DNA of 64,000 bases from Candidatus Bathyarchaeota archaeon (lineage in GTDB: Archaea; Thermoproteota; Bathyarchaeia; Bathyarchaeales; Bathycorpusculaceae). Both the position numbers and the translations under genes were made by a program. This document shows, one piece after another, positions 49,033 through 63,045 of this stretch (positions within the stretch are counted from its first letter, which is position 1; each line of letters starts with the position of its first letter). The stretch is from positions 192,001 through 256,000 of the forward strand of contig OY970280.1 of assembly GCA_963715865.1 (NCBI GenBank). The letters are read 5' to 3'. A model generated the notes under the pieces. It saw only the letters and a list, made by a program, of their open reading frames with translations, searched no databases and was not told the origin of the DNA.

Positions 49033-49419
49033 TTATTTTCGCTCAATCAACTCAATAAGGGTTCCATCTGGATCCTCAATAAAAGCAATCGTTGTACCTG
49101 TTGCAAGCTTGAAAGGTTCATCAGTAATCGTTACATTTTCCTTCCGCAAAGCAGCAATAGTCATTTTCATGTCTGCAACTTCAAACCCTAAATGGTCAAA
49201 CAGGCGCTCTTCATACTCAGGCTGAGTGAATTTCTTTTGGTTACGGTAGAAGGTTAATTCAAGCGTGCAGCCCTTGCCCTGTGGGTCTTGAAGGAAAGCG
49301 ATTTCAGCGTTGTTCTGCTTGATTTCTCGGCGACTCAAAAGGTTTAGGCCTAGAAGTCTGGTGTAAAAGTCAATAGATTTCTCCATGTTGCTTGTGCGAA
49401 TGCTCGCATGAACAAACAT
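49033..49419 (-). CDS. VOC/glyoxalase I-like protein
   Basis: HASIRTSNMEKSIDFY, LELT, HLGFEV and FIEDPDGTLIELIE motifs. Confidence 0.88.
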   Translation of the reverse strand: MFVHASIRTSNMEKSIDFYTRLLGLNLLSRREIKQNNAEIAFLQDPQGKGCTLELTFYRNQKKFTQPEYEERLFDHLGFEVADMKMTIAALRKENVTITDEPFKLATGTTIAFIEDPDGTLIELIERK

Positions 49420-49539
49420 AATGTGTCACTCTAAAAGTTCATTGTGGGGGTTTGTTATAATTCTTTAGCTACAAGCGTCTTCTTGATCGGAACACAGCCA
49501 AAGATTAGAAGAGAGATAGCTTAGTCAAGCGGTTATGCC

Positions 49540-50859
49540 TTAAACCATTTGCTCTTCATTTTCCTGTTTCTTCTTTTTCCTCTTAATCACTAGTGGCTCT
49601 GGTAGCTGAGTACTTTCGGCTTTAGGCTCTTTTTGCTCGTTATCGATTGCTAGGTCTTGCATAGGAAGTTTTTCTTGAATAATACAATCCACTCCCGTGC
49701 AAATTCCAACATATGTATCGTTAATTTGGGATTGCAGTTTCCTTCTTTCCTTCCATAGGCGTGTGTGTGCTTTTTCCTCGCTATCCTGAAGATCAGCCGC
49801 TTTCTGGTAGATGTCGCGCAATTTTTCTACAGTGGAAGCGAATTCTGGGCTTCTTATATAATCGTATAATTTTGATTCTTTGTTTTCCCTGTCCTTTCTG
49901 CTTTCCGATTGCTTACAAATTTCAATAATGGCTCTTCTTATCTGTCTGGCAACATCAACCACTATACATGGGTGGCATAGTAAAATCCCTTCCTTTTCAC
50001 CGAATAAGCCGTTCTTTACATATTTCTTAGGCAGGTTCTTTGAAACTATAATAACATAATCGGTGCCGTGAACATCTTTGTACTTCTTGGCTTTTTCTAC
50101 ATCTTTAGCAGTTACACTTTGGGCTTGTTTGTTATCATAAACGATTGGAGTCTCCAACGATGCATAGGTTGTCCTAATTATCTGTACAATGTCGCCCATG
50201 GCTGTACCTCTTTTCTGCCTAGTGAAGAAGTCTTGGTCAAAGGCCTGTGTAAGGCGAGCGTATAGGTCTATTTCTCCAATTTCACCCATTGCCTCCGATT
50301 GGCTTTGCTGCAATTGCCTCCTAAGCTCGTCCGCATCTCGCTTGAATCGCTCAATTTGGAGTTCCTTTTCTTTTATCTCGTTTCCTAATCGGGTCATTTC
50401 AACTTCAGCGTTAGCCTTGCCCTTGTTAAAAGCAATCTTTTCCAGACGAGTTTGTTCTTTTCTTAAAGCAACTAGCTGTTTTTCCTTATCCTGAAGCTCT
50501 TTTTTGCTATCAGCCTTCAGTTTTTTTCCGAGCGCTGCAAAAGTCCTTTGGTTATCTTTACCAAGCTTGTCATAAGTCTTTTTGAGTGCAGCAAGTTGTT
50601 GCTTGTAACTGCCCTCCATTTCTGTTTTGAGCGTCTTGTTTTGTTCAAGGAAGGAACTTTTCAAGCCAGCGATTTCTTCTTTATGCGACTTGTTTATTTG
50701 CCCAAGTTTTTCTTCAAATTCTAGCTTAGCCTTCTTGTTCTGTTCACCGTATGTTTCTGAAACCTTCTTTTTTAGCTCCTCAATTGCTTGGTAATAATCG
50801 TCACTTTCAAGAGAAGAATGACAAAGAGGACATTTAAACTCTGGAAGATCATTTTTCAA
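49540..50859 (-). CDS. DUF2130-like coiled-coil protein
   Basis: N-terminal CPLC, long coiled coil, then GEIGE...GDIVQII...IVYDNK nuclease-like C-terminal domain. Confidence 0.75.
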   Translation of the reverse strand: MKNDLPEFKCPLCHSSLESDDYYQAIEELKKKVSETYGEQNKKAKLEFEEKLGQINKSHKEEIAGLKSSFLEQNKTLKTEMEGSYKQQLAALKKTYDKLGKDNQRTFAALGKKLKADSKKELQDKEKQLVALRKEQTRLEKIAFNKGKANAEVEMTRLGNEIKEKELQIERFKRDADELRRQLQQSQSEAMGEIGEIDLYARLTQAFDQDFFTRQKRGTAMGDIVQIIRTTYASLETPIVYDNKQAQSVTAKDVEKAKKYKDVHGTDYVIIVSKNLPKKYVKNGLFGEKEGILLCHPCIVVDVARQIRRAIIEICKQSESRKDRENKESKLYDYIRSPEFASTVEKLRDIYQKAADLQDSEEKAHTRLWKERRKLQSQINDTYVGICTGVDCIIQEKLPMQDLAIDNEQKEPKAESTQLPEPLVIKRKKKKQENEEQMV

Positions 50860-50957
50860 ACCTTAAATCCCCTATAGACTGCAATAATAGGCGATAAGCT
50901 GGAATTATATCGAACTTAACTTAAGCTTTATGAAGCGAACGTATAGCAATTTCTTCA

Positions 50958-51383
50958 CTAAGTAAAAGCTCTGGATTCTTCATCTAAAGTCTTATTCACA
51001 AGCGCGTCTGCCTGCTGAATATACGGATTAGTTCTTGGGGCATTAACAAAACTTATAGTTTTAAAGCGGGCTCTCAACTCTTGCGCTCTTAGCCAAAGCT
51101 TTTGCAACTCAAAATTTTTGACAGCATATTCCCCGTTAAGCTGTTTTGCGACTAATTCGCTGTCAAGGTGGCAAACGACTTCTTCAACTTTAACCGCTAT
51201 GGCAAACTCCAATGCCGCTATCAACGCGTTGTATTCTGACTGGTTATTAGTGTGTATTCCTATGAAGCGTGAATCCGCTTTTACGACTTCGCCTTTTTCT
51301 GTTAATGCCAAATAAGCTATGGCTGCTGGTCCAGGATTTCCTCTTGCTCCACCATCAGAATAAAGCAGTAGTCGCTTGTACAT
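50958..51383 (-). CDS. rnhA: Ribonuclease HI (type 1)
   Basis: YSDGGARGNPGPA, TNNQSEY, LDSELVAKQ and ADALVN motifs. Confidence 0.92.
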   Translation of the reverse strand: MYKRLLLYSDGGARGNPGPAAIAYLALTEKGEVVKADSRFIGIHTNNQSEYNALIAALEFAIAVKVEEVVCHLDSELVAKQLNGEYAVKNFELQKLWLRAQELRARFKTISFVNAPRTNPYIQQADALVNKTLDEESRAFT

Positions 51384-51887: not shown

Positions 51888-51952
51888 GTTTCCGATTTTC
51901 CCAAGCAGCCTTCAATTCAGCAACAAAGCCTGCTTCATCTTCTGCCAAGCGT
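51880..51952 (-). pseudogene. 3' half of the small gene split by the defence insertion
   Basis: Reads RLAEDEAGFVAELKAAWENRKLT*, continuing ...VKKRLAEDEA from 61801-61974. Confidence 0.8.
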
Positions 51953-52080
51953 CATCAAATACGCAGGATTAGAATACATCACGGCTTTAGCGAAAACCGC
52001 CACACAAATCGCTCCTGTGCCGTTATCGATACATCTTGACCATGGAGAAGATTTCGATACAGCCGCGAAATGCGTTAATG
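51931..52080 (+). repeat. Left flanking direct repeat: 22 bp matching 61801-61822, overlapping 137 bp matching fba 62274-62410
   Basis: 51931-51952 vs 61801-61822 is 20/22. 51944-52080 vs 62274-62410 is 132/137. The two segments overlap at GCCAAGCGT. Confidence 0.92.
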
Positions 52081-52241
52081 TTTCAGATTTGTCAGTAATC
52101 GAAAAGTACTCTACTTCTGAATTCGTCTTTGGAATCATTAGTATGGCGAATAAGTCCGAAGACAAATATCACAAGTACCATGGAAGTGAGATACACAAAG
52201 CAGATATTCTCTTCTAATAATAACCTGTTGATTGAACTGAT

Positions 52242-53369
52242 ATGTCTGGCTCGAGCATCGATGAGGTTTACAAGAGATATGAGTTTAACAAGACTGAACC
52301 CGAGACATTGATGGGGCTGGTCAAGCAAGCTATACAAACAGGTGACGGGGTAAAAGATGAACTGAAGAGATTCAGAGAGATCACAGAAAAAGTGGCAAAG
52401 CTTTTGGAGAAGAAGGGGGTCTTCAGAGTCTTGGACCCCTCGAAAATTGAGAACATAGAGTTCTTCCGAAATGTTTGCGCCGTTGGAATAGACGGAAGTC
52501 TTCAACCAATCGAAGGATTTGGCGGTTATTGGTTCGTACCTACAAGCTGTGCGAGAGTAACATTCGAGAAGGGTCCGAACTCCGCTACCAAAGTCGACGT
52601 CACAGCAAATATCGAGAAAATAAAAGAACATGATTACTATGGCGTTGGCGGTGAAGCCGAACTCCGTATGATGAAATCGGAGACAAAGGCGATAATGGAT
52701 TGGGCAGAGCAGCATGATGCTTCTATTAGAAGTATTATGTTTATCGATGGACCAATCGTTGACCCCCCTAGCGTTGTTGACAAAGATTACGTTAAATACA
52801 GGTGCAAAGCACTGGAAAAATGTATCAAGAAGAACATTCTAGTTATTGGATGTGTAAAAAGGATGAAAGCCAGTATATTGTTGGATTTCATTATGAAAAA
52901 CGTTTTCAAAAACGAAACCAACATGGACCTCAAAGAAAGGTTCGCTTGGGACCTTAATTTGGTAACGGCAATATTTACCAAACTCGTTGTTGAAGGAGCT
53001 AAAGGAGTCTTGAGCACTGTCCCAATCTGTGTCAGCGAGACAGATGCGGCACAAAAAGCGTACCGTGATCAAGGTATTATTGTAAATTCCCTTTATATCC
53101 AGAAAGATCCCACAGGTCGACCAATAAGAGTGGACTTCCCAATTCTGAAGAGTTGCGAGGAAAGTATTGAAGCGATAGGGGAAAAAATCATAAGTACCGT
53201 ATACGCATGGTCGTATCCTGGCATGGACATTCCACTGCCAGTTTTCTTGGCTCATAACAAATGTGAAGTCAGAAAAGGATGTGCTGATGTTTTGTACGCC
53301 GAAATAATTACGCGTTCAAAAAGTAAAGACCCATTTGAAAACATATTAAACGAAAAACTGAAGAGGTGA
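52242..53369 (+). CDS. NurA-family nuclease
   Basis: AVGIDGS, MFIDGPI, IGCVKR and YPGMDIPLPVFLAHNKC motifs (RNase H-like NurA pattern). Confidence 0.82.
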   Translation: MSGSSIDEVYKRYEFNKTEPETLMGLVKQAIQTGDGVKDELKRFREITEKVAKLLEKKGVFRVLDPSKIENIEFFRNVCAVGIDGSLQPIEGFGGYWFVPTSCARVTFEKGPNSATKVDVTANIEKIKEHDYYGVGGEAELRMMKSETKAIMDWAEQHDASIRSIMFIDGPIVDPPSVVDKDYVKYRCKALEKCIKKNILVIGCVKRMKASILLDFIMKNVFKNETNMDLKERFAWDLNLVTAIFTKLVVEGAKGVLSTVPICVSETDAAQKAYRDQGIIVNSLYIQKDPTGRPIRVDFPILKSCEESIEAIGEKIISTVYAWSYPGMDIPLPVFLAHNKCEVRKGCADVLYAEIITRSKSKDPFENILNEKLKR

Positions 53370-53374
53370 GTTGA

Positions 53375-55018
53375 TTGGTCAGTAGAAATCCTATAGGTGT
53401 GGTTCTAACAGGGGCAACAACCCAAAAAGCAGCGTGCCAACTTTTCGAATCTTCAGAAAGAGGCGGTGTCAGAGAAGGGAAATTCCTCCTGATTGAAAGC
53501 ATGCCAGGCAAGCGACAAATAATGGTTCGAGTGGCCTCCATCGTTCCTCAAAACGATTTCTACAGTCCAGGCGATGCTTGGACTGAGGCTCGAAGAAAAC
53601 AAGTAGAGATACCTGGCCAACTCGCAAGACAGTACGAAATTTGCGAGCTCGATTTACTTGCTGAGATGCCAGGGGCCAAGCCAATCGTAGTTCCACCTTT
53701 TCCAAATGACAAGATCTACGAAATGAAATTACCAGAAGAGGCTGAGAACGTATTCGGAGTGTCTAACAAGAGTCAAGGGATAATATGGTATGGAACTATG
53801 ACCGGTTATCAAAACGCGCCCATTCCTCTTAATGTCGAAAGCATACCAATGCACATTGGAATTTTTGGAACTACAGGTAGTGGAAAATCATATGATACTG
53901 GAGCTTTGATAGAAAAGCTTGTTACGATCTATGATAAAGAGGACAGAATTCTTTCATTTCCGATTCTTGTAATTGACGCTAACGGCGACTATCTTGATTA
54001 TGTCAAGTTCTTTGAAGATCACGAGAGGTTCGGTGCGGCATCAGCAGTCACGAGGTATGTCTTTCCCGGTTCTCCAGAGCTAAGTAAGATAAATGTAAGG
54101 CCTATAGCCATAGATTTGAATCTCATGTCGAAACGGGAGATAGCTGAAGCTATTAATCTCTACTATTCGGGAGGAGAGAAAACGGAGCTCCAAGTGTCTG
54201 GGTTGGAGAAACTGTTTGCTCATATGGAAGATACATCTCTAATATCGGAGGGAAACTACCAGAGCATCTTTACTGACGATGATAGGTTTGAAGATGCTAA
54301 AGGGGCTCTTGCTAACCTGAGTCTTCATTCCGGAACTGTGGCTGCAGTTCTGCGTGCTCTTGAAAAATTCAAGGAAGTTGAAGACAGTTATAGTCTTCTG
54401 TCAGAGGCGCTAAAGCTTGATAGAAACTTCGTGGATACCCTTACAAAGAATCGTGAAATTGCCATAATAGACTTTTCTGCTGCAGGGGCTCCGGGAGTTG
54501 ATCCCCGACTTAAACAATTCGTGATGTCTTATTTGGCTTCCATTCTTTTTAGGGTATTCACGGAGTACAAGATGGAAGGTCAAGAACGGTATATGCTATT
54601 CATAATAGAGGAGGCTCAGAACTATTGTCCCAATCTTTCGACCTACAACATCGGATATAGTCTTGCTCGCGAGAAACTGGCAGCTATAGCCACGCAGGGC
54701 CGTAAGTTCGGGCTCAGTCTCTGCCTCATTTCCCAAAGACCATCTTTTGTTGATCAGGTCGTTTTGTCAATGTGTAACAGTTTCTTTCTGCACAGAATCT
54801 CGCCAGAGGATGTCTCATTCGTGAAGAGGGTTACAGGAGGCTTACCTTTATCGTTGGAGCGGAGGCTGACTATTCTCGCCAATGGTGAGCTCATAGTGAG
54901 CGGGCAGATGCTGACACTGCCATTTCCAATGCTTATTAAAGTCCCTCCGAGAGAAGTCCCGCAGACTACTGGCAAAACCGACGTTTTAGGTGCTTTGAGG
55001 AGTCTGGCTACAAAATGA
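53375..55018 (+). CDS. HerA-family FtsK-like ATPase/translocase
   Basis: N-terminal HAS-barrel-like region, HIGIFGTTGSGKS (Walker A), FIIEEAQNY (Walker B) and QGRKFGLSLCLISQRPS. Confidence 0.92.
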   Translation: MVSRNPIGVVLTGATTQKAACQLFESSERGGVREGKFLLIESMPGKRQIMVRVASIVPQNDFYSPGDAWTEARRKQVEIPGQLARQYEICELDLLAEMPGAKPIVVPPFPNDKIYEMKLPEEAENVFGVSNKSQGIIWYGTMTGYQNAPIPLNVESIPMHIGIFGTTGSGKSYDTGALIEKLVTIYDKEDRILSFPILVIDANGDYLDYVKFFEDHERFGAASAVTRYVFPGSPELSKINVRPIAIDLNLMSKREIAEAINLYYSGGEKTELQVSGLEKLFAHMEDTSLISEGNYQSIFTDDDRFEDAKGALANLSLHSGTVAAVLRALEKFKEVEDSYSLLSEALKLDRNFVDTLTKNREIAIIDFSAAGAPGVDPRLKQFVMSYLASILFRVFTEYKMEGQERYMLFIIEEAQNYCPNLSTYNIGYSLAREKLAAIATQGRKFGLSLCLISQRPSFVDQVVLSMCNSFFLHRISPEDVSFVKRVTGGLPLSLERRLTILANGELIVSGQMLTLPFPMLIKVPPREVPQTTGKTDVLGALRSLATK

Positions 55019-58000
55019 GTGAGAAAAGTGATAAAATCGGTTCCATGTATTCCAGACTCCCAACGGGCCCTGGAGTTCCCACCGCAAGTCTCACAGGCTT
55101 TTCGTTCGCGATTATTGAAAGCAGAAAACCTGTGGAGAAACAGCTACGAGATTTCATGACTTTTTGCAGAAGAGATGCGCTATCGGTTAACGTTAAGATT
55201 CTGAAAGCTGAATGGGGCGAAGGAAAAACTGATGCATACGAACGGTATATTCATCCAGAAGCCGAGACGAGCGGAGATGCTTGCTATTTCGCATCGACAT
55301 CAACTATTGCAGATAGAATAAACAGATTTCACGATATTTTCTCAACAACGAGCTATGTCCCAAGCTCAAAATTCCTTGCATCCGTTTTCGTATCGATAAT
55401 TGACGAGGCGACTCATCAAAAGATCGGCGTTAAGGGTTTTCCAAATGTTTTAGATTTCCAGAATGATCCACTAAAATTCATAGAAACAACTCTAGAGAAC
55501 CATCGAAGAATTGGCTGCAAAAAGATATTCGTCTTCATTGACGAATTTGAAGAACTGCTTATTCAAGATAGCAAAGTCCAAAAAGAAATAATTTCAGGGT
55601 TGAAGGAGCTCATTAATGGACAGTTGGGTCTTGTCCATGAAGGCGGGTCTAGTCAGGGAATGCTCCATTTCTTCATAGCTTGTACGCCATATGCGTACAT
55701 TCGAATCATGGAAGACGTCGAGCTTGCCCAGATTACTGGCTCAGTCAAGTCTCGGTTGACAACACTGACCTTACCTGAAGTTACTCATAAAGAGGCGTTG
55801 CAGTTCCTAATAGACTTAACCAGATACAGTTATGGTGACATTCTGCCCGAAGCCTTTCCCTTCCGTAGTCTGGGTCCTTTGAACGGCATATACGCTATTT
55901 CCCACGGTAACCTAAGAGAAATGATCAAACTCTTTGTCAAGCTTATGTCAACTGCGGCAGATGAGAAAACCAAACAGTTTCATCTGATTGATGCAAATCA
56001 CTTTGTGTCATCATTAAGAGATGAGGATATTTCAGTTTATGGAGCCAGCGGAAAAGCCATAGATGATGAGTTACTAGATAAGGTAAATGTTAATCTGAAG
56101 AGAATCAGCAGAGGAGAAGAGTGCTTAGCCGTTTTTAACCTGCTAATGGGTGAATACCAGCCCTTCAACATCGACGAGATGGGCAAAAGATTGGGGCTCC
56201 CGAAAGACGAAATTCATCAACTTGTCTCCGCTGTAAACACGGAACTGCAAAAGATGGGGATAGACAAGGCAATTTCGGCACTTTTTCCTCTTAATGAGGG
56301 AAAGACGTTCGAGACAGTCAAGAATCGACTTCAGATTGTTCAAGACCGTATAATCATCGGAAACGCGAAGATCCCAATTAAGAAATTCAAGGAGAAGCTT
56401 TTTGCCTACACATTTCATGCAGATGGAAAACTTTCAGAGACTCTTCTGCTTCCCAAGGAGCCAAGAGATCTTGAATTGCTGTTTGAGAATATCACCGAAG
56501 AAGAGACCGGAGAACTCACGTCAGAAGAGGCTGAAAAACTGCATCATGCAATAAAGGAAGACTTTGATCAAGCGGCGGCAAAACGGTATTACGTATTATC
56601 TCAAGACATAATTAATCAAGTTTTTCCGTCTCCCTTGTGGTTACTGATGGACTTCGTAAAAGACAGAGCAAAAAGGATGGATCTATGGCGAAAGGCGAGT
56701 AAAGAATATTTTGAGTCTGTCAAGGAATTAAGAACTGGACTGCTAAGTCTAATTGAACATAACGGTATCGGCAAGTTCGAATCGAAAGAGACCAATGGAG
56801 GGAAATACTACAAATTTGATTATGAACTTCAAGACAAGGCAATTCCAATTTCTGCATACGCATATGTTAGCGCTGGCAACATTACTGAACAAGATATTGA
56901 AGAGATACGTGATGACGTGAAGAGCCGTAGACCCAATCTCGTTCTTCTGGTCTACAGTGGTGAAATTGATGCAAATTTGCCAACAGAAATCGGGGGCATC
57001 GAAACACCTATTCTCCAGATTCATTTGAGAAAAATTAGAGCCCTTCAACTAATAGTTGCTCAACTAGCTCGCCCTCTCACGGAAATCGACCCGAAAATCT
57101 TGGAAAAGAGGTTTGCTGAAGTATCCGATGAGGCTGAAATTCAGAAGAGATTCGCTGAGTGGTACAATAAATGCACGAGTGAAGGAATCGTTGTTGATGA
57201 TCCTTACACGAATTACGCTGATAGCGGTGGCAAGCTCGCTGGAATATTAAAATACTACATCAATTTCTTGGGTGAAAGAAAAACATCTTCAGAAGTCTTT
57301 GAAGATTACGAAAAAACTCTTAAGAACATCAAATTCTTCGGTGACAAGGAAGTTCCTTTTGCCCCCGTTGATATAGAAACTACAGGCGAATTTACAAAGT
57401 TCGAGGATGAACTGGTTAGAAACGGCTTTCTATCCAAGCAGAGTGCGGGTACAGTTTGCGTTGAGAATACACCCGTTGAACTGCGGATCACGTCAATTAC
57501 CAAGAGATATCCAAAGGTGGAAGTCAAGCAACTTAAGCAGTTTTTCATAAATGCTGCCCAAGCTGAAAGCGTACTTGAAAGAGTTTACCTTCCGATCTTG
57601 ATTCACAAAGGTGTCCTTACTATTGATGAGGACAACATAATTAAGAAAGAACCACAGCTGCTGCGAAAAGAATTGGAGAACGATTTTGCTACATATGAGG
57701 CAAATGCGAGAAGCAAGTCTAACAGCTGGAAAAGCTTCGCGCATATTTGTGTATCAAAGGGGCGGAAAGAAGAAAAGGGAATGATAATCATTGACCTTAG
57801 CTACGTAGACCAGTTGCTCAGATACAAGAAGAAAGAAATTGACGATGAACATGACGAGAACCTCTTGCTTCAAAAGATTCAACTATTCAAACTTATCATG
57901 AACTATTATTATGAAAAACTGGAACCCAAGATAGACATTGCGATAGCGGCTGCGAGTCAGCTAAAGAGAGAAACACACTCTGAAACAGAATCATTGAAAA

Positions 58001-59298
58001 ACGCGCTGAACAAGGTACTAGAAACCTACAACTCTTATTGTCAAGACAAGACCTATTCTTTGGAAGAGATTGAAGAATACAGCAAAATTTTGGGACACAA
58101 AAAGGACGTGGATGCCACATTTGACCAAACATTTTCCATTGATGAGCTAAATCGATACCGCAACCAAGTTAAGTGGGAGGAATATCATTTCGGTCGAGAC
58201 GCGAGAGAAGCCCACTACTTCAACCTGAAGTTTGCAATGCTTGAGAAATCCCGCCATGAACTGACTAGCGCCATTGGTGCAATCAGCACTGTAATTACAG
58301 AAGCTCAAGATCTGATTTCCAGAACAGAGGAACTAAAAAAGCAAATACACAAAGAATCATCAGTGTACAAGATACCCGCCAACTACAAAATCAGCACGAA
58401 AATTCTTGATGAACTGCATAAATACCATGCTAAACCGGCACACGCTCAGTCAGCATTGCCAAGGATTCGGGTTGGCATGATGAAAGAGTTTTTCAGTTCG
58501 CTCGAGAAGCAGTTGGGTCGAGATCAGTCTCGAGTTCAAGGTGTACTCGAGAAAGCTGAAGAGGTTAGAAAATCTGAGAAAGCCTTTCTTGAAAGCGAAT
58601 TACAGGCGTGCGTAGAAAACGCGCGAAAGTTCTTCCAGATTCCTTACGAAGAAAAATTCAAGAATGTGGAAGATTCGCTGAAATTGGCCACTGAAGAGTA
58701 CACAGAGTTGTGCGCGCAGACCGCAGAGAAATCACTAAAATCCCTTGACGATCTTTACCAGCTAGCTAACTCTGCAGGAAAGAAGTTTAAGGATTCAATA
58801 AACGAAAAAATGATTCAAGCTGAGAATGCTATTGGCCAAGTTTTTGACGAAGCAGAGAGAGGCTTGGAGAAGGTTCGGAACGAAGTTGACAGTTTCGCCA
58901 GAGTTCTCAAAAATGCATTTGGAGAAAAAGTGGCGCCTGTTTGCGAAAAATACGTTGAACATTTTGAAGATGAAATTAGGATCACACAAGGGGCGATACA
59001 AACTGTAAAACAAGGTCATGAGACAGGCTATACCTGGGCTGAGCGACAAAAGGATTTGGGCGAAGTGCGTGAGAAGTTCTTCAAAGATCTAAAACCTATA
59101 ATGCCCCCTCAAGAAGGAGCTATACTCTTGGAGATTGTGCGTATAATAAGTGAAAATCAATCTCAATGGATGAATGTGCAAGATCTTGTCTCCCAGTTAA
59201 AAGTACGACTTAGTAAATCCGACGAGGAAATCGAACAGACCTTAAAGAGACTGGTTGATTTGAATTTGGTAAGAACAGGTGCCTCGTTGCCGATATGA
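55015..59298 (+). CDS. Giant P-loop ATPase (1427 aa) with wHTH and coiled-coil regions
   Basis: KAEWGEGKT (Walker A), VFIDEFEE (Walker B), helical/coiled-coil C-terminal third and terminal wHTH-like VQDLVSQL...IEQTLKRLVDLNLV. Confidence 0.8.
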   Translation: MSEKSDKIGSMYSRLPTGPGVPTASLTGFSFAIIESRKPVEKQLRDFMTFCRRDALSVNVKILKAEWGEGKTDAYERYIHPEAETSGDACYFASTSTIADRINRFHDIFSTTSYVPSSKFLASVFVSIIDEATHQKIGVKGFPNVLDFQNDPLKFIETTLENHRRIGCKKIFVFIDEFEELLIQDSKVQKEIISGLKELINGQLGLVHEGGSSQGMLHFFIACTPYAYIRIMEDVELAQITGSVKSRLTTLTLPEVTHKEALQFLIDLTRYSYGDILPEAFPFRSLGPLNGIYAISHGNLREMIKLFVKLMSTAADEKTKQFHLIDANHFVSSLRDEDISVYGASGKAIDDELLDKVNVNLKRISRGEECLAVFNLLMGEYQPFNIDEMGKRLGLPKDEIHQLVSAVNTELQKMGIDKAISALFPLNEGKTFETVKNRLQIVQDRIIIGNAKIPIKKFKEKLFAYTFHADGKLSETLLLPKEPRDLELLFENITEEETGELTSEEAEKLHHAIKEDFDQAAAKRYYVLSQDIINQVFPSPLWLLMDFVKDRAKRMDLWRKASKEYFESVKELRTGLLSLIEHNGIGKFESKETNGGKYYKFDYELQDKAIPISAYAYVSAGNITEQDIEEIRDDVKSRRPNLVLLVYSGEIDANLPTEIGGIETPILQIHLRKIRALQLIVAQLARPLTEIDPKILEKRFAEVSDEAEIQKRFAEWYNKCTSEGIVVDDPYTNYADSGGKLAGILKYYINFLGERKTSSEVFEDYEKTLKNIKFFGDKEVPFAPVDIETTGEFTKFEDELVRNGFLSKQSAGTVCVENTPVELRITSITKRYPKVEVKQLKQFFINAAQAESVLERVYLPILIHKGVLTIDEDNIIKKEPQLLRKELENDFATYEANARSKSNSWKSFAHICVSKGRKEEKGMIIIDLSYVDQLLRYKKKEIDDEHDENLLLQKIQLFKLIMNYYYEKLEPKIDIAIAAASQLKRETHSETESLKNALNKVLETYNSYCQDKTYSLEEIEEYSKILGHKKDVDATFDQTFSIDELNRYRNQVKWEEYHFGRDAREAHYFNLKFAMLEKSRHELTSAIGAISTVITEAQDLISRTEELKKQIHKESSVYKIPANYKISTKILDELHKYHAKPAHAQSALPRIRVGMMKEFFSSLEKQLGRDQSRVQGVLEKAEEVRKSEKAFLESELQACVENARKFFQIPYEEKFKNVEDSLKLATEEYTELCAQTAEKSLKSLDDLYQLANSAGKKFKDSINEKMIQAENAIGQVFDEAERGLEKVRNEVDSFARVLKNAFGEKVAPVCEKYVEHFEDEIRITQGAIQTVKQGHETGYTWAERQKDLGEVREKFFKDLKPIMPPQEGAILLEIVRIISENQSQWMNVQDLVSQLKVRLSKSDEEIEQTLKRLVDLNLVRTGASLPI

Positions 59299-59448
59299 TT
59301 CATCGACCTCTTTGTGTTTCTTGAATCTTTGGCACAGGGTGTGAATCCGTGTTAGACGAAGGGCAAAGAGATAAGCTTATAGGAACATACTTGGTAATCC
59401 AGGAATAATGTTTCTTGGGTCATAAGGAAAAGTAAAAAGGGGACAAAT

Positions 59449-60225
59449 ATGAATAAAGCAGAGCTTTACGAGGCAATTTCGGCGAGAAAAGGGAATGGCG
59501 TGCAGATAAGACAGGAATTATGCTTTTATGACCCTGAAGATGTCTATAGAGGCTTAACATCCAACAACAAAATAATGAAATGGTTGAAATTCGTTTCAAA
59601 CCATTACTTACCTCCTTCGGACAAGAAAGTGCTTCTAATTTATCCGTGTTCGACCGAAAAACCATATCACGCATCACGATCATACAAGCGCTTGTTCAAG
59701 ACGTTAAATAACCTTGGAGACGAAAGACGGAGAATTCATGTGGTAACAATATCCGAACCGTTTGGTCTTGTACCCGAAGAGTTTTACGGCATAGAGAATC
59801 CGTGGCATGATTGGAAGAATGAATGGTATGACTGCCCGGGTCTCTTTGAATGGTGGTGTAGCAAGTATAAGCAAGCATACTCGCAAGAATTTCTCGACAA
59901 GAGCATAGAATGTCTGTCTGATTATGTTGCTAGATTTCTAACCAAGGTTCAGAAAAACAATTGCTATGAGGAAAAGATTGCATTTGTACGATCTTACACT
60001 GCACAGCTAAAAACCAAAAAAGATCATACTCACCGAAGAATTATTGAGCGGGCTGCTGCAATCTCAGATGTCAAGGTGAAAATCCTTCCCTCCAAAGATT
60101 TGGTATCAAAAATCGTCAGAAGCAATGGAAGTATGGCTTGGGACATGTATGGAGTATCCCATCCTTTGGCTCAAGAGTATCTTCTGAGATACTTGAAGGG
60201 GATCCTACATATTGAAACCAACTGA
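59449..60225 (+). CDS. Stand-alone DUF5591 (archaeosine synthase ArcS-type domain) protein
   Basis: VLLIYPCSTEKPYHASRSY...IHVVTISEPFGLVPEE...YDCPG matches the PCSxxKPYxxS motif. Confidence 0.78.
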   Translation: MNKAELYEAISARKGNGVQIRQELCFYDPEDVYRGLTSNNKIMKWLKFVSNHYLPPSDKKVLLIYPCSTEKPYHASRSYKRLFKTLNNLGDERRRIHVVTISEPFGLVPEEFYGIENPWHDWKNEWYDCPGLFEWWCSKYKQAYSQEFLDKSIECLSDYVARFLTKVQKNNCYEEKIAFVRSYTAQLKTKKDHTHRRIIERAAAISDVKVKILPSKDLVSKIVRSNGSMAWDMYGVSHPLAQEYLLRYLKGILHIETN

Positions 60226-61237
60226 GACACCATTTCTTTTGCTGAGCCAACTTGTAAACGGTTCTCCAAAGCCATGGAAGCATTTCAAAATAGACGGGCT
60301 AATGGTTAATGCTTACGAAATTCTGCAGAAAAATAAAACTCACGAAACGGTCTGTAGAGAAGGGATTCATGAATATTTAGGATACCATGGGCGCGTAGGA
60401 ATGGACTCTGGTGGATTTCTATTTATGCGAAAGAAATCGTTGGGTGTCCATCCCCAACAAATCTTGGATCTATATGAATCTAGCAAGCCTAATTTGGCAG
60501 TGGTATTGGACCATCCGCTTGAACCTTGCCTATCTATGTCACAGAGAAAGAAGCGCCAACTGAAGACCTTAGAAAACACGATGTATATGCTAAGTTCCAG
60601 AACAAGTGAAAATCCGTTGCTTATGCCAGTTATTCATGGGTATTCTTTGCAGACAGTGAGATGGTACATAAGGGCACTTGCCAAAATAGGCGATTTTGAA
60701 ACGTATGGAATTGGAAGTCTGGTACCATCGGTATTTAATGCCAAGGGGATTGGAGGCATCTACAACGTTTTGAGAATTGTCTCCTATGTCAGAAAACTTC
60801 TCCCAAATAAGAAAATCCATGTCTTTGGAATTGGGAGTACATTAACAATGCATTTGATGTTTTATGTTGGTGCAAATTCCGTCGACAGCTCCGGTTGGAG
60901 AACAAAAGCAGCGTTCGGCGCTATTCAACTTCCTGGTATCGGTGACAGATACATAACCACGAGAGAAAGAAAAAAGAACTACAGGGATCTTTCTGAGGCT
61001 GATAAGGAGATTTTGGCTCAATGCCGTTGCCCTGTGTGTGAGAAAAAAGGATTGGAAAAACTGAGGACAAGCTTTGAGGATAGAGCCTTGCATAACTCGT
61101 GGGTTTTTCAGAAGGAAATCGAGAAAATTCGATTATTAACGAGAGAGGAGGCATATGAGAGTTATGTTGAGGAAGTTCTCACAAAGTCTTCCTTCTGTAG
61201 AGCCTTTGCTTTTGCCAAGCAAATCAAGAATTCCTAG
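60212..61237 (+). CDS. tRNA-guanine-transglycosylase-like (DpdA-like) base-exchange enzyme without PUA domain
   Basis: MDSGGF, VLDHP, PVIHG, IHVFGIG, SVDSSGW (nucleophile Asp) and CRCPVC...H Zn site; 341 aa. Confidence 0.9.
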   Translation: MKPTETPFLLLSQLVNGSPKPWKHFKIDGLMVNAYEILQKNKTHETVCREGIHEYLGYHGRVGMDSGGFLFMRKKSLGVHPQQILDLYESSKPNLAVVLDHPLEPCLSMSQRKKRQLKTLENTMYMLSSRTSENPLLMPVIHGYSLQTVRWYIRALAKIGDFETYGIGSLVPSVFNAKGIGGIYNVLRIVSYVRKLLPNKKIHVFGIGSTLTMHLMFYVGANSVDSSGWRTKAAFGAIQLPGIGDRYITTRERKKNYRDLSEADKEILAQCRCPVCEKKGLEKLRTSFEDRALHNSWVFQKEIEKIRLLTREEAYESYVEEVLTKSSFCRAFAFAKQIKNS

Positions 61238-61243
61238 AAATTT

Positions 61244-61648
61244 TCATTGCAGTATTTTCACCAATAATGAAGGGATAACATCTTTGAAAACAGAACCACC
61301 GACAACAAAAAAAGTCTTGGACTTAACTAAATTCTTGAAAGTATGTTGCCACGCTCTACGTGGAGTTTCAGTCAGCACTATAAGAGCAACAGCCTTGTTT
61401 TGCAATACATAATCTACTCCTCTTCGTTCCCATTTCTCATAGGAGTTACTCGTAAGGTTATGACCCAGTTCGGACTCTATCAGCAGCCCTCTTTCATTTG
61501 CTGGATTGATGATGTAGATGTCAGGACCGGTTTTGTGCTCTCTCGCTAAGTTGATTTCTTTTATTATATAGCCCAGCGACTCCGCCACGGCATAAGTATA
61601 ATCTAACGAGAAGTCATGAAGCGTTTGATGAGTATACGTATCGCTCAT
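61244..61648 (-). CDS. Small PD-(D/E)xK-type endonuclease-like protein
   Basis: GPDIYII...LLIESE motif; 134 aa, convergent on the TGT-like gene. Confidence 0.55.
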   Translation of the reverse strand: MSDTYTHQTLHDFSLDYTYAVAESLGYIIKEINLAREHKTGPDIYIINPANERGLLIESELGHNLTSNSYEKWERRGVDYVLQNKAVALIVLTETPRRAWQHTFKNLVKSKTFFVVGGSVFKDVIPSLLVKILQ

Positions 61649-61800
61649 ATCTAATTTATATTGCGTTGTAGCTTTAAGTGGTTTCCCTTGATTAAATGTT
61701 AATCAATGGCTGAACTATTTTGTCGATCCTGCGAACCTTCATGTGGAAAACTATAGGCCCTTGGTAATTCAACTATGAGAACGATTTTCTCTGAAAATGT

Positions 61801-61974
61801 TGCTTCGTCCTCTGCCAAGCGTTTTTTAACTTGCCTCCAAACCGCTGGGCAATCCGTGTAATCTGAACCTATAATGCTGCGAATGACATTGTCAACTTCT
61901 TTTCTGTTTTGGCGTGTTACCTCTATTCCTGCTTTCTTAAAAGTCGCTTCAAGATGACGGAAATAACAAGTCAC
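61801..61974 (-). pseudogene. 5' part of a 74-aa small gene split by the insertion
   Basis: MTCYFRHL...CPAVWRQVKKRLAEDEA then reads into cassette DNA (ORF 61699-61974). Confidence 0.8.
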
Positions 61975-62127: not shown

Positions 62128-63045
62128 GTGCTTGTAACAAACAAGGATTTAATGGTTCCAGCCAGAAAAAACGGTTACGCCGTTGCAGCATTCAACATCC
62201 AAAACATGGAAAGCATGAAAGCCGTTGTGGAAGCAGCAACCGAAGAAAAATCCCCAGCCATCATGCAAATAACGCCAAGCGTCATCAAATACGCAGGATT
62301 AGAATACATCACGACTTTAGCGAAAACCGCCACACAAATCGCTCCTGTGCCAATAGCGATACATCTTGACCACGGAGAAGATTTCGATACAGCCGCGAAA
62401 TGCGTTAATGCCGGGTTTAGTTCAGTGATGATTGATGGCTCGTTTTTAAGTTTCAACGAAAACGTCGCTGTCACTAAACGAGTAGTAGATGTTGCTCATC
62501 CAAAGGGCGTTTCTGTTGAAGCTGAACTGGGCAAACTTGCGGGTGTCGAAGAACGCAGCGTGGAAGAAAGAGAAGCCATACTAACTGACCCGCAAAGTGC
62601 AGTAGAATTCGTGGAGAAAACCGGCGTTGACACACTTGCCGTAGCAATCGGCACATCGCATGGGGCTTACAAGTTTAAAAGCCAAGCAAAAATAGACCTT
62701 GAACGCTTAAAAATCATCAGCCAAAAAATCAGCATCCCACTTGTACTGCACGGCGCATCAAGCGTGCCTGCATGGATAGTTGAGAAAGCAGTCAAATACG
62801 GGGCAACACTAGATGGAGCAAAAGGCGTATCAGAAGACCAATTGCAACAAGCGATTAAGCTGGGCATTGCAAAAATCAACATTGACACTGACTTGCGCTT
62901 AGCCTTCACCGCAACAGTACGCGAAGTCTTAACCAACTCGCCAAAGGAATTTGACCCAAGAAAAATCCTTGGTCCAGCAAAAGACGCTATGAAAGAAGTG
63001 GCTAAGGGCAAAATGCGCCTGTTCGGAAGTTCAGGAAAAGCCTAA
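62128..63045 (+). CDS. fba: Class II fructose-1,6-bisphosphate aldolase
   Basis: AVAAFN, IHLDHG, SSVMIDGS, VEAELG, AIGTSHG, LVLHGAS and KINIDTD motifs. Confidence 0.96.
   Translation: MLVTNKDLMVPARKNGYAVAAFNIQNMESMKAVVEAATEEKSPAIMQITPSVIKYAGLEYITTLAKTATQIAPVPIAIHLDHGEDFDTAAKCVNAGFSSVMIDGSFLSFNENVAVTKRVVDVAHPKGVSVEAELGKLAGVEERSVEEREAILTDPQSAVEFVEKTGVDTLAVAIGTSHGAYKFKSQAKIDLERLKIISQKISIPLVLHGASSVPAWIVEKAVKYGATLDGAKGVSEDQLQQAIKLGIAKINIDTDLRLAFTATVREVLTNSPKEFDPRKILGPAKDAMKEVAKGKMRLFGSSGKA

Follow-up and report, generated by a model that had tools for sequence, protein, structure and literature searches.

A putative 7-deazaguanine DNA restriction-modification cassette combining a DpdA-like transglycosylase with NurA, HerA and an ORC-like giant ATPase in Bathyarchaeia

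Introduction

Both viruses and the bacterial Dpd system are known to place 7-deazaguanines in DNA, and the archaea are the home of archaeosine. Here we describe a six-gene cassette from a 64,000-nt stretch of the genome of a Candidatus Bathyarchaeota archaeon (contig OY970280.1, positions 192,001 to 256,000; this whole stretch is called the window below). A DpdA-like transglycosylase (TGT) and an ArcS2-like protein are encoded in the cassette together with a predicted NurA-family nuclease, a HerA-type ATPase and a giant protein predicted to be an ORC/Cdc6-type ATPase.

Several described systems come close to this combination. The DNA of virus STSV2 contains a 7-deazaguanine, and the DpdA2 and ArcS2 proteins of phage nt-1 make dG+ in DNA (PMC10516641). 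In the tdpABC cluster a single gene, tdpC, is sufficient to write a phosphorothioate mark on DNA (PMC12914056). A comparative study of 2026 dealt with capture systems centred on HerA/FtsK (PMC12839542). A 7-deazaguanine DNA system of cellular archaea was not found described in the literature searchable here, nor was the five-gene set in the full-text literature searched, most subscription journals lying outside the reach of that search.

In our judgement, drawn from comparison of sequences, the cassette is probably an undescribed immune system of the restriction-modification type that uses 7-deazaguanine as its mark. A more specific reading, which we regard as evenly poised, makes it the first 7-deazaguanine DNA restriction-modification system of cellular archaea: an enzyme derived from arcTGT and an ArcS core would write an archaeosine-type base into the chromosome with base salvaged from the environment, the ORC-like giant ATPase would load NurA-HerA onto unmarked DNA, and the whole would have spread horizontally over most archaeal phyla and some bacteria.

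Results

Composition of the cassette and proposed mechanism

The six genes occupy positions 52242-61648 of the window (Table 1). In a scan of open reading frames (ORFs) the first five, up to position 61237, lie on the forward strand and the last one is convergent; the first two are 5 nt apart, the second and third overlap by 4 nt (ATGA), 150 nt lie before the fourth, and the fourth and fifth overlap by 14 nt. These coordinates and spacings reproduce the original prediction, which had been made from the sequence alone. That prediction also joined a self-marking module (the TGT-like and DUF5591 proteins) to an attack module (NurA, HerA and the ATPase). The joining of the modules is supported on comparative grounds, namely the recurrence of the gene set, its QueC and QueT neighbours, the TGT tree, the loci with modification genes only and the transposon sequencing (Tn-seq) of a related operon; the marking of DNA and the attack on unmarked DNA are parts of the mechanism proposed below.

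The six proteins were scanned against Pfam, PADLOC and NCBIfam models. No defined system of PADLOC was matched by the cassette, which agrees with the earlier claim that the gene set belongs to no described system, and P0001, P0003, P0004 and P0006 were without any PADLOC match. The dpdB, dpdC and other dpd accessory genes, reported earlier as not recognisable, likewise gave no Pfam, PADLOC or NCBIfam match in the six proteins. A search of sequencing runs for the cassette returned DNA runs from sediment metagenomes only, at a small share, and no RNA run was listed.

In the mechanism that we propose, P0005 would exchange guanine in the double-stranded DNA of the cell for a 7-deazaguanine base, most likely preQ0, which in this host would be imported via QueT. 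P0004 would convert the cyano group of the DNA-bound preQ0 to a further derivative, either dG+ as in phage nt-1 or, given a His-to-Tyr change in its motif, another product. The giant ORC/Cdc6-like ATPase, with its winged-helix and coiled-coil regions, would act as a DNA-binding sensor or loader and would guide NurA and HerA onto unmarked DNA, which this nuclease and translocase would thread and degrade. Four points of the scheme we infer: that the substrate is DNA, which base forms the mark, in which direction discrimination runs, and that the cassette acts in defence.

Recurrence across phyla

Relatives of the transglycosylase P0005 make at least 294 clusters at 90% identity. The five genes were found in the same order in the contexts of six such relatives (from Bathyarchaeia, Methanodesulfokora, Asgardarchaeia, Methanomethylicia and two unassigned metagenome contigs), with the giant gene split in one of them into parts of 556 and 845 codons. 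A scan of species-representative genomes, scored with hidden Markov models (HMMs) built from the cassette alignments, gave 20 loci. The full set in the same order is present in L025, L026, L028, L030, L031, L032 and L035; the two modules are divergent in L027, the order is TGT-ArcS2-HerA-giant-NurA in L068, and a rearranged set is found in a bacterium of the Crocinitomicaceae (L037). Carriers overall include Bathyarchaeia, Korarchaeota, Asgard archaea, Methanomethylicia, Nitrosopumilus, Thermoplasmata, Archaeoglobales, Thermoproteota and this one bacterium. The TGT-like gene thus keeps company with the NurA, HerA and ATPase genes elsewhere, in a set that recurs across phyla and survives rearrangement; a lack of such company had been named earlier as a refutation of the prediction.

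QueC and/or QueT adjoin the cassette or its TGT in L011, L027, L029, L031, L024 and L105/L106. Other frequent neighbours are defence genes: Piwi, DUF1156-DUF499-SNF2, GmrSD-HNH and toxin-antitoxin genes.

Three kinds of surroundings may be mentioned in their own right. Two cassettes lie in defence islands, one (L019; 1-1154, 13520-21056) beside a Piwi-domain gene and a DUF1156-DUF499-SNF2 cluster and the other (L013; 12437-13744) beside a GmrSD-HNH gene and a DDE transposase. In independent contigs, small genes for DUF6884 and DUF8426 proteins turn up repeatedly at a distance of a few kb from the cassette (L100 2478-2744, L102 253-519; L011 14308-15000, L100 1838-2371). Finally, a Bathyarchaeia contig (L024; 7480-11684) carries a lone cassette-type TGT with a PrimPol/D5-helicase replication gene on one side and a QueT gene on the other; this is probably an integrated mobile element that uses the TGT for anti-restriction.

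A related operon in Sulfolobus and two alternative readings

The Tn-seq data for S. islandicus M.16.4 (Supplementary Data 2 and 8 of PMC6249222) cover a related operon, M164_0014-0019. Two of its genes were essential, M164_0019 (Tgt; 1 insertion) and M164_0018 (TGT-related, ArcS2; 0 insertions), and four were non-essential: M164_0017 (HerA; 24 insertions), M164_0016 (ATPase; 17), M164_0015 (unknown; 9) and M164_0014 (NurA-like; 19) (PMC6249222). Essential modification genes next to dispensable attack genes make a signature of restriction-modification, which supports our reading. The loci sampled point the same way: modification genes stand alone in L029, in L024 and in the STSV viruses, and the NurA-HerA-giant trio was never seen without a TGT. 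When the cassette HMMs were run on Sulfolobaceae genomes with that operon layout they matched HerA (3e-111), ArcS2 (2e-29), TGT (5e-26) and NurA (1e-18); the support from Tn-seq would carry over to the cassette of the window by the homology of four of its five parts.

Two further ideas were tested. The 1018-aa Sulfolobus ATPase has no detectable homology to the giant protein (hhalign probability 4.9%). The idea that the short TGTs of Thermoproteota might be the housekeeping enzyme, which would have weakened the argument from Tn-seq, was rejected, a canonical arcTGT of at least 550 bits being present in five of the five genomes tested. Three of the Sulfolobaceae genomes with a short TGT have a separate arcTGT as well, and because of it the essentiality of the short TGT is unlikely to be a tRNA effect. 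In S. islandicus LAL14/1 the promoter of SiL_0019, the TGT of the operon, was among those bound by the cell-cycle regulator SiL_0190 in electrophoretic mobility shift assays, and SiL_0019 was down-regulated in cultures expressing gp21, a viral homologue of this regulator (PMC9976892, Table 1); a viral counter-measure is one possible explanation of this down-regulation.

One could argue that the cassette is a modification machine only, where NurA-HerA and the ORC-like ATPase open or translocate the duplex for the TGT, as DpdB does for DpdA, and where the mark is epigenetic or anti-restriction and nothing is restricted. Bacterial DpdA requires its ATPase partner DpdB for DNA modification (PMC10164549, as summarised in PMC12839542), and the cassette has no DpdB of its own; in addition, a TGT is found on the mobile element of L024, for which anti-restriction is the natural role. 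We consider this explanation unlikely. The modification pair occurs without the other three genes, as QueC-ArcS2-TGT in L029 and alone in STSV viruses, hence the helpers are not required; the predicted NurA retains a full nuclease active site; and the Sulfolobus subtype cannot do without its modification genes but can spare the would-be helpers, the opposite of what is expected of a pure modification pathway.

A different logic of defence has a lower standing still and seems to us quite improbable: the ORC-like ATPase and NurA-HerA would capture invader DNA regardless of its mark, with TGT and ArcS2 serving as an effector or a second layer that acts on invader DNA or on host tRNA. Among the proposed capture systems a TGT and a GNAT protein are present in only a subset of loci (PMC12839542), and the giant protein evolves fast, as a sensor might. 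In the cassette, however, the TGT-ArcS2 pair is a constant rather than an optional partner: no full cassette among those sampled was without it. Also, the fact that the modification genes could not be disrupted in uninfected Sulfolobus cultures fits constitutive self-protection better than an effector triggered by infection.

Table 1. Cassette genes and borders of the insert, in window coordinates
Feature	Position	Strand	Basis
P0001, predicted NurA-family nuclease, 375 aa	52242..53369	+	alignment, PF09376 in homologues, fold search
P0002, HerA/FtsK-type hexameric ATPase, 547 aa	53375..55018	+	PF01935, Walker motifs
P0003, giant protein, predicted ORC/Cdc6-type AAA+, 1427 aa	55015..59298	+	invariant motifs, model fold
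P0004, ArcS2-like protein (DUF5591), 258 aa	59449..60225	+	PF17884, motif alignment
P0005, DpdA-like PUA-less transglycosylase, 341 aa	60212..61237	+	PF01702, alignments, tree
P0006, conserved protein of a family tied to QueT, 134 aa	61244..61648	-	contexts of homologues
Left copy of 22-bp direct repeat, TGCTTCATCTTCTGCCAAGCGT	51931..51952		repeat family D16; aligns to the single copy in G007
Right copy of 22-bp direct repeat, TGCTTCGTCCTCTGCCAAGCGT	61801..61822		repeat search, G007 alignment
Inserted segment, 9,848 bp	51953..61800		synteny with the empty site of G007 on both sides
Copy of 137 nt of the aldolase gene, 96% identical to 62274-62410	51944..52080	+	repeat D1, sharp alignment edges

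The modification pair

P0004 matches PF17884 (DUF5591; 8e-14), and its profile matches AF0587 (2q07). The protein is a stand-alone C1 catalytic core of archaeosine synthase, without the Nt-C1-C2-PUA architecture; on the NCBIfam ArcS models NF040592 and NF053620 it scored 52.6-53 bits against cut-offs of 440-600, over only the first part of C1, and thus falls outside ArcS as defined by these models. In the motif PC-x3-KPY-x2-S-x2-Y the residues P66-C67, K71-P72-Y73 and S76 are invariant. The final position is His in ArcS and in the ArcS2 of STSV2 but Tyr79 in the ArcS2 of the cassette, with this Tyr present in seven of seven cassette copies. The alignment with STSV2 ArcS2 reveals an extra C-terminal region in P0004, and a tblastn search of phage genomes with P0004 gave no match. 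The cassette-type ArcS2 family is small, with 14 clusters at 50% identity (E ≤1e-30).

P0005 matches PF01702 (1.7e-21) and, with partial coverage, the DpdA model of PADLOC (1.8e-14). Its scores stayed below the family cut-offs both for arcTGT (TIGR00432; 95.9 bits, cut-off 350) and for bDpdA (NF041059; 53 bits, cut-off 200). The alignments show that the catalytic residues D65 and D225, the substrate residue D100 and the CxCxxC...H zinc site are retained; no C1, C2 or PUA domain was found in the protein. An insertion (WRTKAAFGAIQLPG...) is common to P0005 and STSV2 DpdA and is missing from the arcTGT of the host, and the best P0005 matches in the phage collection were the DpdA proteins of STSV1/2/4. 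As in the viral pairs, the PUA-less TGT core is encoded beside a stand-alone DUF5591 protein, here with the 14-nt overlap. Complex prediction for P0005 and P0004 gave 0.38, 0.00 and 0.00 in three runs, made with an alignment without the STSV2 row, and counts neither way.

In a maximum-likelihood tree of 33 TGT-family proteins, six canonical arcTGTs, including the one of the host, form a clade with 100/100 support on a long branch. The cassette TGTs fall outside this clade; the clustering with housekeeping tRNA TGTs that had been named earlier as a refutation was thus not seen. The window TGT belongs to a cassette-type clade (92/88) that mixes phyla and also holds the L024 and L029 copies; the L029 copy, from the QueC-ArcS2-TGT locus of a Nitrosopumilus, is sister (100/100) to the copy from a full Nitrosopumilus cassette. 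STSV2 DpdA and the Sulfolobaceae genes make a separate 100/100 clade.

That P0004 and P0005 are instead tRNA enzymes (a split PUA-less archaeosine synthase, or a second arcTGT, complementing a host that lacks ArcS, next to NurA-HerA-ATPase genes that are unrelated or act on RNA) is very improbable. In its favour, the host has no separate ArcS and an arcTGT with only a degenerate C1-like domain, P0005 has its top score on arcTGT models, and archaea are known to have ArcS in split form as well as C1 proteins that stand alone (PMC10516641). Against it, the pair carries no PUA or C2 tRNA-binding domain, is missing from all 60 relatives searched (as deduced from the linked giant gene), came together with DNA-handling enzymes on a 9.8-kb insert and keeps strict synteny with them across phyla, and consists of a TGT outside the arcTGT clade and a protein that reaches 23-53 bits on ArcS models with cut-offs of 440-600.

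The NurA, HerA and giant proteins

P0001 has no Pfam match of its own, missing the threshold of the Pfam NurA family, PF09376, which four of six P0001 homologues do match. Residues D84, E147, D169 and H338 are invariant in the family alignment. In a Foldseek search with the structural model of P0001 (predicted local distance difference test, pLDDT, of 71) the best PDB match was S. solfataricus NurA (2ygk; E 4.7e-9), and the next seven were NurA chains as well; other top structural matches were HerA-NurA complexes and TdpAB. The family profile gave no match to PDB sequences, the identity having come from the fold search, and on the modelled fold P0001 is predicted to be a NurA-family nuclease with a full active site.

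P0002 matches the HerA family PF01935 (4.4e-25; 89.5 bits against a cut-off of 23.2) and carries the Walker A motif GTTGSGKS and the Walker B motif FIIEEAQ. It matched PADLOC HerA models at up to 5.6e-35; scores on the NCBIfam HerA models were all far under their cut-offs.

The giant protein P0003 has invariant Walker A (EWGEGKTD) and Walker B (F.DEFEE) motifs in 14 sequences. Residues 1-470 were modelled (pLDDT 81) and appear as an ORC/Cdc6-type AAA+ domain with a lid and a winged helix (~30-460). The eight best PDB matches of this N-terminal part in Foldseek are archaeal Orc/Cdc6 proteins, some of them DNA-bound; structural matches include ORC2 (1w5s; 3.8e-8), Cdc6 (1fnn), the Orc1/Cdc6-DNA complex (2qby) and TnsC. 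The prediction of an ORC/Cdc6-type AAA+ ATPase at the N-terminus is thus one of fold and not of sequence. In Pfam P0003 matched no family, and the Pfam search with six homologues, at E up to 1, gave only sub-threshold hints of nSTAND5, AAA_22 and WHD. An atlas search with the middle region (residues 470-960) returned no match. A coiled-coil region (~1140-1340) is followed by a probable C-terminal winged helix, and the P0003 profile against PDB sequences produced coiled-coil noise only.

Identity across phyla is 54-65% for the modification proteins, 50-53% for HerA, 38-41% for NurA and 28-29% for the giant protein. The giant protein, proposed as the sensor or loader, diverges fastest, as specificity subunits do; such divergence is the pattern expected of a specificity carrier.

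Giant ATPases of 1390-1550 aa that are more remote paralogues of P0003 were noted in L065-L067 (genus g98) and in L069, L070 and L072 (family f35). They have no NurA, HerA, ArcS2 or TGT partner within ~7-8 kb. The neighbours of the L065 copy are the housekeeping genes for GatE, the primase large subunit and succinyl-CoA ligase, and in family f35 five of five sampled genomes are carriers; these paralogues may represent a chromosomal ORC-like giant ATPase.

The insert and its borders

The 9,848-bp insert contains exactly the six cassette genes, and its ORF list shows no integrase or transposase inside. In the congener G007 the site is empty, with a single copy of the border repeat (L023 13122-13144) in a contiguous run of an RNase H-like gene, a wHTH gene, a small ORF and a class II aldolase gene. 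Flanks are not conserved in four other congeners, and the empty site is therefore known from G007 only. Base composition was tried as a sign of insertion and rejected, the GC content being 0.419 both in the insert and in the rest of the window. The cassette had been described earlier as lying inside an insertion, and so it does, on the evidence of the G007 empty site and the 22-bp duplication and not of composition.

The giant gene was not found in the 36 other species of the genus and the 24 other genomes of the order that were searched; its profile matches 15 of 401 genomes of the host phylum, only some of them at full length. Given the empty site in G007 and the failure to find the giant gene in these 60 relatives, the cassette is an accessory element gained by horizontal transfer.

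The 137-nt copy of aldolase-gene sequence takes in 9 nt of the border repeat and the first 128 nt of the insert; the fragment is joined to the 22-bp repeat through a 9-nt microhomology, GCCAAGCGT. The class II fructose-bisphosphate aldolase gene itself is intact; the copy corresponds to an internal piece of it and makes a scar at the left end of the insert. A second segment of ~1.9 kb (window 49038-50975) is also extra with respect to G007 and carries a glyoxalase-family gene (49033-49419, reverse strand) and a DUF2130 gene (49540-50859, reverse strand); the neighbourhood is therefore a variable region.

Supply of the base and the sixth gene

The host genome, with a completeness rating of 97.9%, consists of one contig. 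Its sole housekeeping TGT, a 541-aa arcTGT, is encoded outside the window (G000:C1:1151485-1153050; locus L001 880-2505, reverse strand); it scores 571 bits on TIGR00432, gives no PUA match and carries at its C-terminus a DUF5591-like domain whose ArcS motif is degenerate. A QueT gene is present, and neither QueC, QueD, YhhQ nor a separate ArcS was found in this 97.9%-complete genome. The QueF model had no match in the host, but it also missed the control Sulfolobus, so the host may still have a QueF-L. The host looks like a preQ0 auxotroph with unclear tRNA base 15 chemistry. The original prediction had drawn the deazaguanine from an endogenous preQ0 pool of the host; this part has to be given up, with only arcTGT and QueT at hand, and since QueC and QueD were not found the base would be salvaged through QueT.

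The sixth ORF, P0006, had been read as a PD-(D/E)xK-like nuclease. No Pfam, PADLOC, PHROG or PDB sequence match backs this up; the language-model neighbours of P0006 include PDDEXK_3, PDDEXK_11 and MunI clusters (0.91-0.93), which are weak hints with few shared features, and the family is found to travel with QueT. There are 13 homologues at 68-78% identity. In five contigs (L100-102 and L105-106) a homologue lies 7 nt past the TGT in convergent orientation, as in the window, and in L105/L106 it is preceded by QueT. In L103/L104 (9409-10402) a QueT gene is followed after 83 nt by a gene of the P0006 family, between glycosylation genes and DNA polymerase B and with no cassette nearby. As the pairing of QueT with P0006 persists without the cassette, we take P0006 for a partner of QueT, probably a 7-deazaguanine salvage accessory of this cassette subclade, to judge by the contexts. 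A search for a QueT remnant at the right end of the insert and for a P0006 paralogue beside the host QueT found neither.

Discussion

Several observations weigh against the reading of the cassette as a restriction-modification system. The Tn-seq data come from a subtype whose large ATPase has no detectable homology to the giant protein. Paralogues of the giant ATPase reside amid housekeeping genes, hence the family is not exclusively defensive. With no QueC or QueD, the host could protect its own DNA only while the base is supplied from outside, a risk for any system of the restriction-modification kind. The Tyr in place of the His of the characterised ArcS enzymes makes the chemistry of P0004 uncertain. 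Finally, P0005 is nearer in sequence to arcTGT (95.9 bits; PDB 1iq8, 4.9e-20) than to bacterial DpdA (53 bits).

If the restriction-modification reading is true, the cassette represents a new architecture, in which base exchange supplies the mark, an ORC-like protein the sensor and NurA-HerA the effector. The essentiality of two small 'tRNA-modification' genes in S. islandicus would then be explained, and immunity would be tied to the salvage of a micronutrient in a host unable to make preQ0. Modified chromosomal bases would be predicted in Bathyarchaeia, Asgard archaea, Nitrosopumilus and others, with effects on sequencing and restriction analyses. S. islandicus is genetically tractable and has a virus library, thus the idea is directly testable there.

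Comparison with known systems

The HerA-NurA end-resection machine, which works with Mre11-Rad50, shares with the cassette the NurA fold, the acidic and His residues and a HerA gene directly downstream. In contrast to that machine, the cassette is unlinked to mre11/rad50 and resides on a mobile insert missing in relatives; its P0001 stays below the Pfam NurA threshold and its HerA far below the cut-offs of the NCBIfam equivalog models.

In tdpABC (PDB 8wfd; PMC12914056) a HerA-like and NurA-like pair is encoded with a single-gene DNA modification, a precedent for the pairing seen in the cassette, and TdpAB is among the top matches of P0001; the mark, however, is a backbone phosphorothioate made by TdpC and not an exchanged base, there is no ORC-like giant protein, and the cluster comes from extremophilic bacteria. 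The BREX-related capture (BRC) systems (PMC12839542) resemble the cassette in the HerA/FtsK translocase, in an ORC/Cdc6-type AAA+ protein (DUF6079, BrxC-like) and in a TGT, present in a subset, that was proposed as the writer of a self-mark. The cassette has no PglZ, DUF4007, STAND NTPase or GNAT, whereas BRC has neither NurA nor an ArcS core; in Pfam neither the giant protein nor its homologues matched DUF6079 or BrxC, even with E allowed up to 1.

The Sulfolobaceae operon (M164_0014-0019 / SSO2197-2202), known by annotation and from the Tn-seq data, has homologous TGT, ArcS2-like, HerA and NurA-like genes, and a large P-loop ATPase is encoded between HerA and NurA. The order is different, TGT-ArcS2-HerA-ATPase-unknown-NurA, the TGT is of the STSV-type clade, and neither the 1018-aa ATPase nor a 237-aa coiled-coil protein shows detectable homology to the giant protein.

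The viral DpdA and ArcS2 pairs (STSV1/2/4 and Vibrio phage nt-1; PMC6884629, PMC10516641) match the modification half of the cassette, with a PUA-less TGT beside a DUF5591 core, overlapping frames and, in STSV2, the shared TGT insertion. These pairs are anti-restriction devices with no nuclease module. In STSV2 the order is reversed (DpdA, then ArcS2), and STSV2 DpdA lacks the zinc-cysteine motif and groups with Sulfolobaceae genes in a clade of its own.

The closest parallel in logic is the Dpd system (dpdA-K; Salmonella Montevideo and others), where, by the summarised account of PMC10164549, a TGT paralogue puts a preQ0-type 7-deazaguanine into the DNA of the cell itself, maturation of the base falls to a second enzyme, restriction of unmodified DNA is carried out by linked ATPases and nucleases, and the genes lie on a genomic island. 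The cassette differs in having no DpdB (ParB-like ATPase), DpdC (DUF328) or DpdD-K; its TGT is from the arcTGT lineage and not from bDpdA, maturation is assigned to an ArcS core, and restriction to NurA-HerA with the ORC-like giant protein. The cassette would thus work like Dpd, yet in each test of Dpd membership that was run it fell outside, except for the transglycosylase superfamily that the two have in common.

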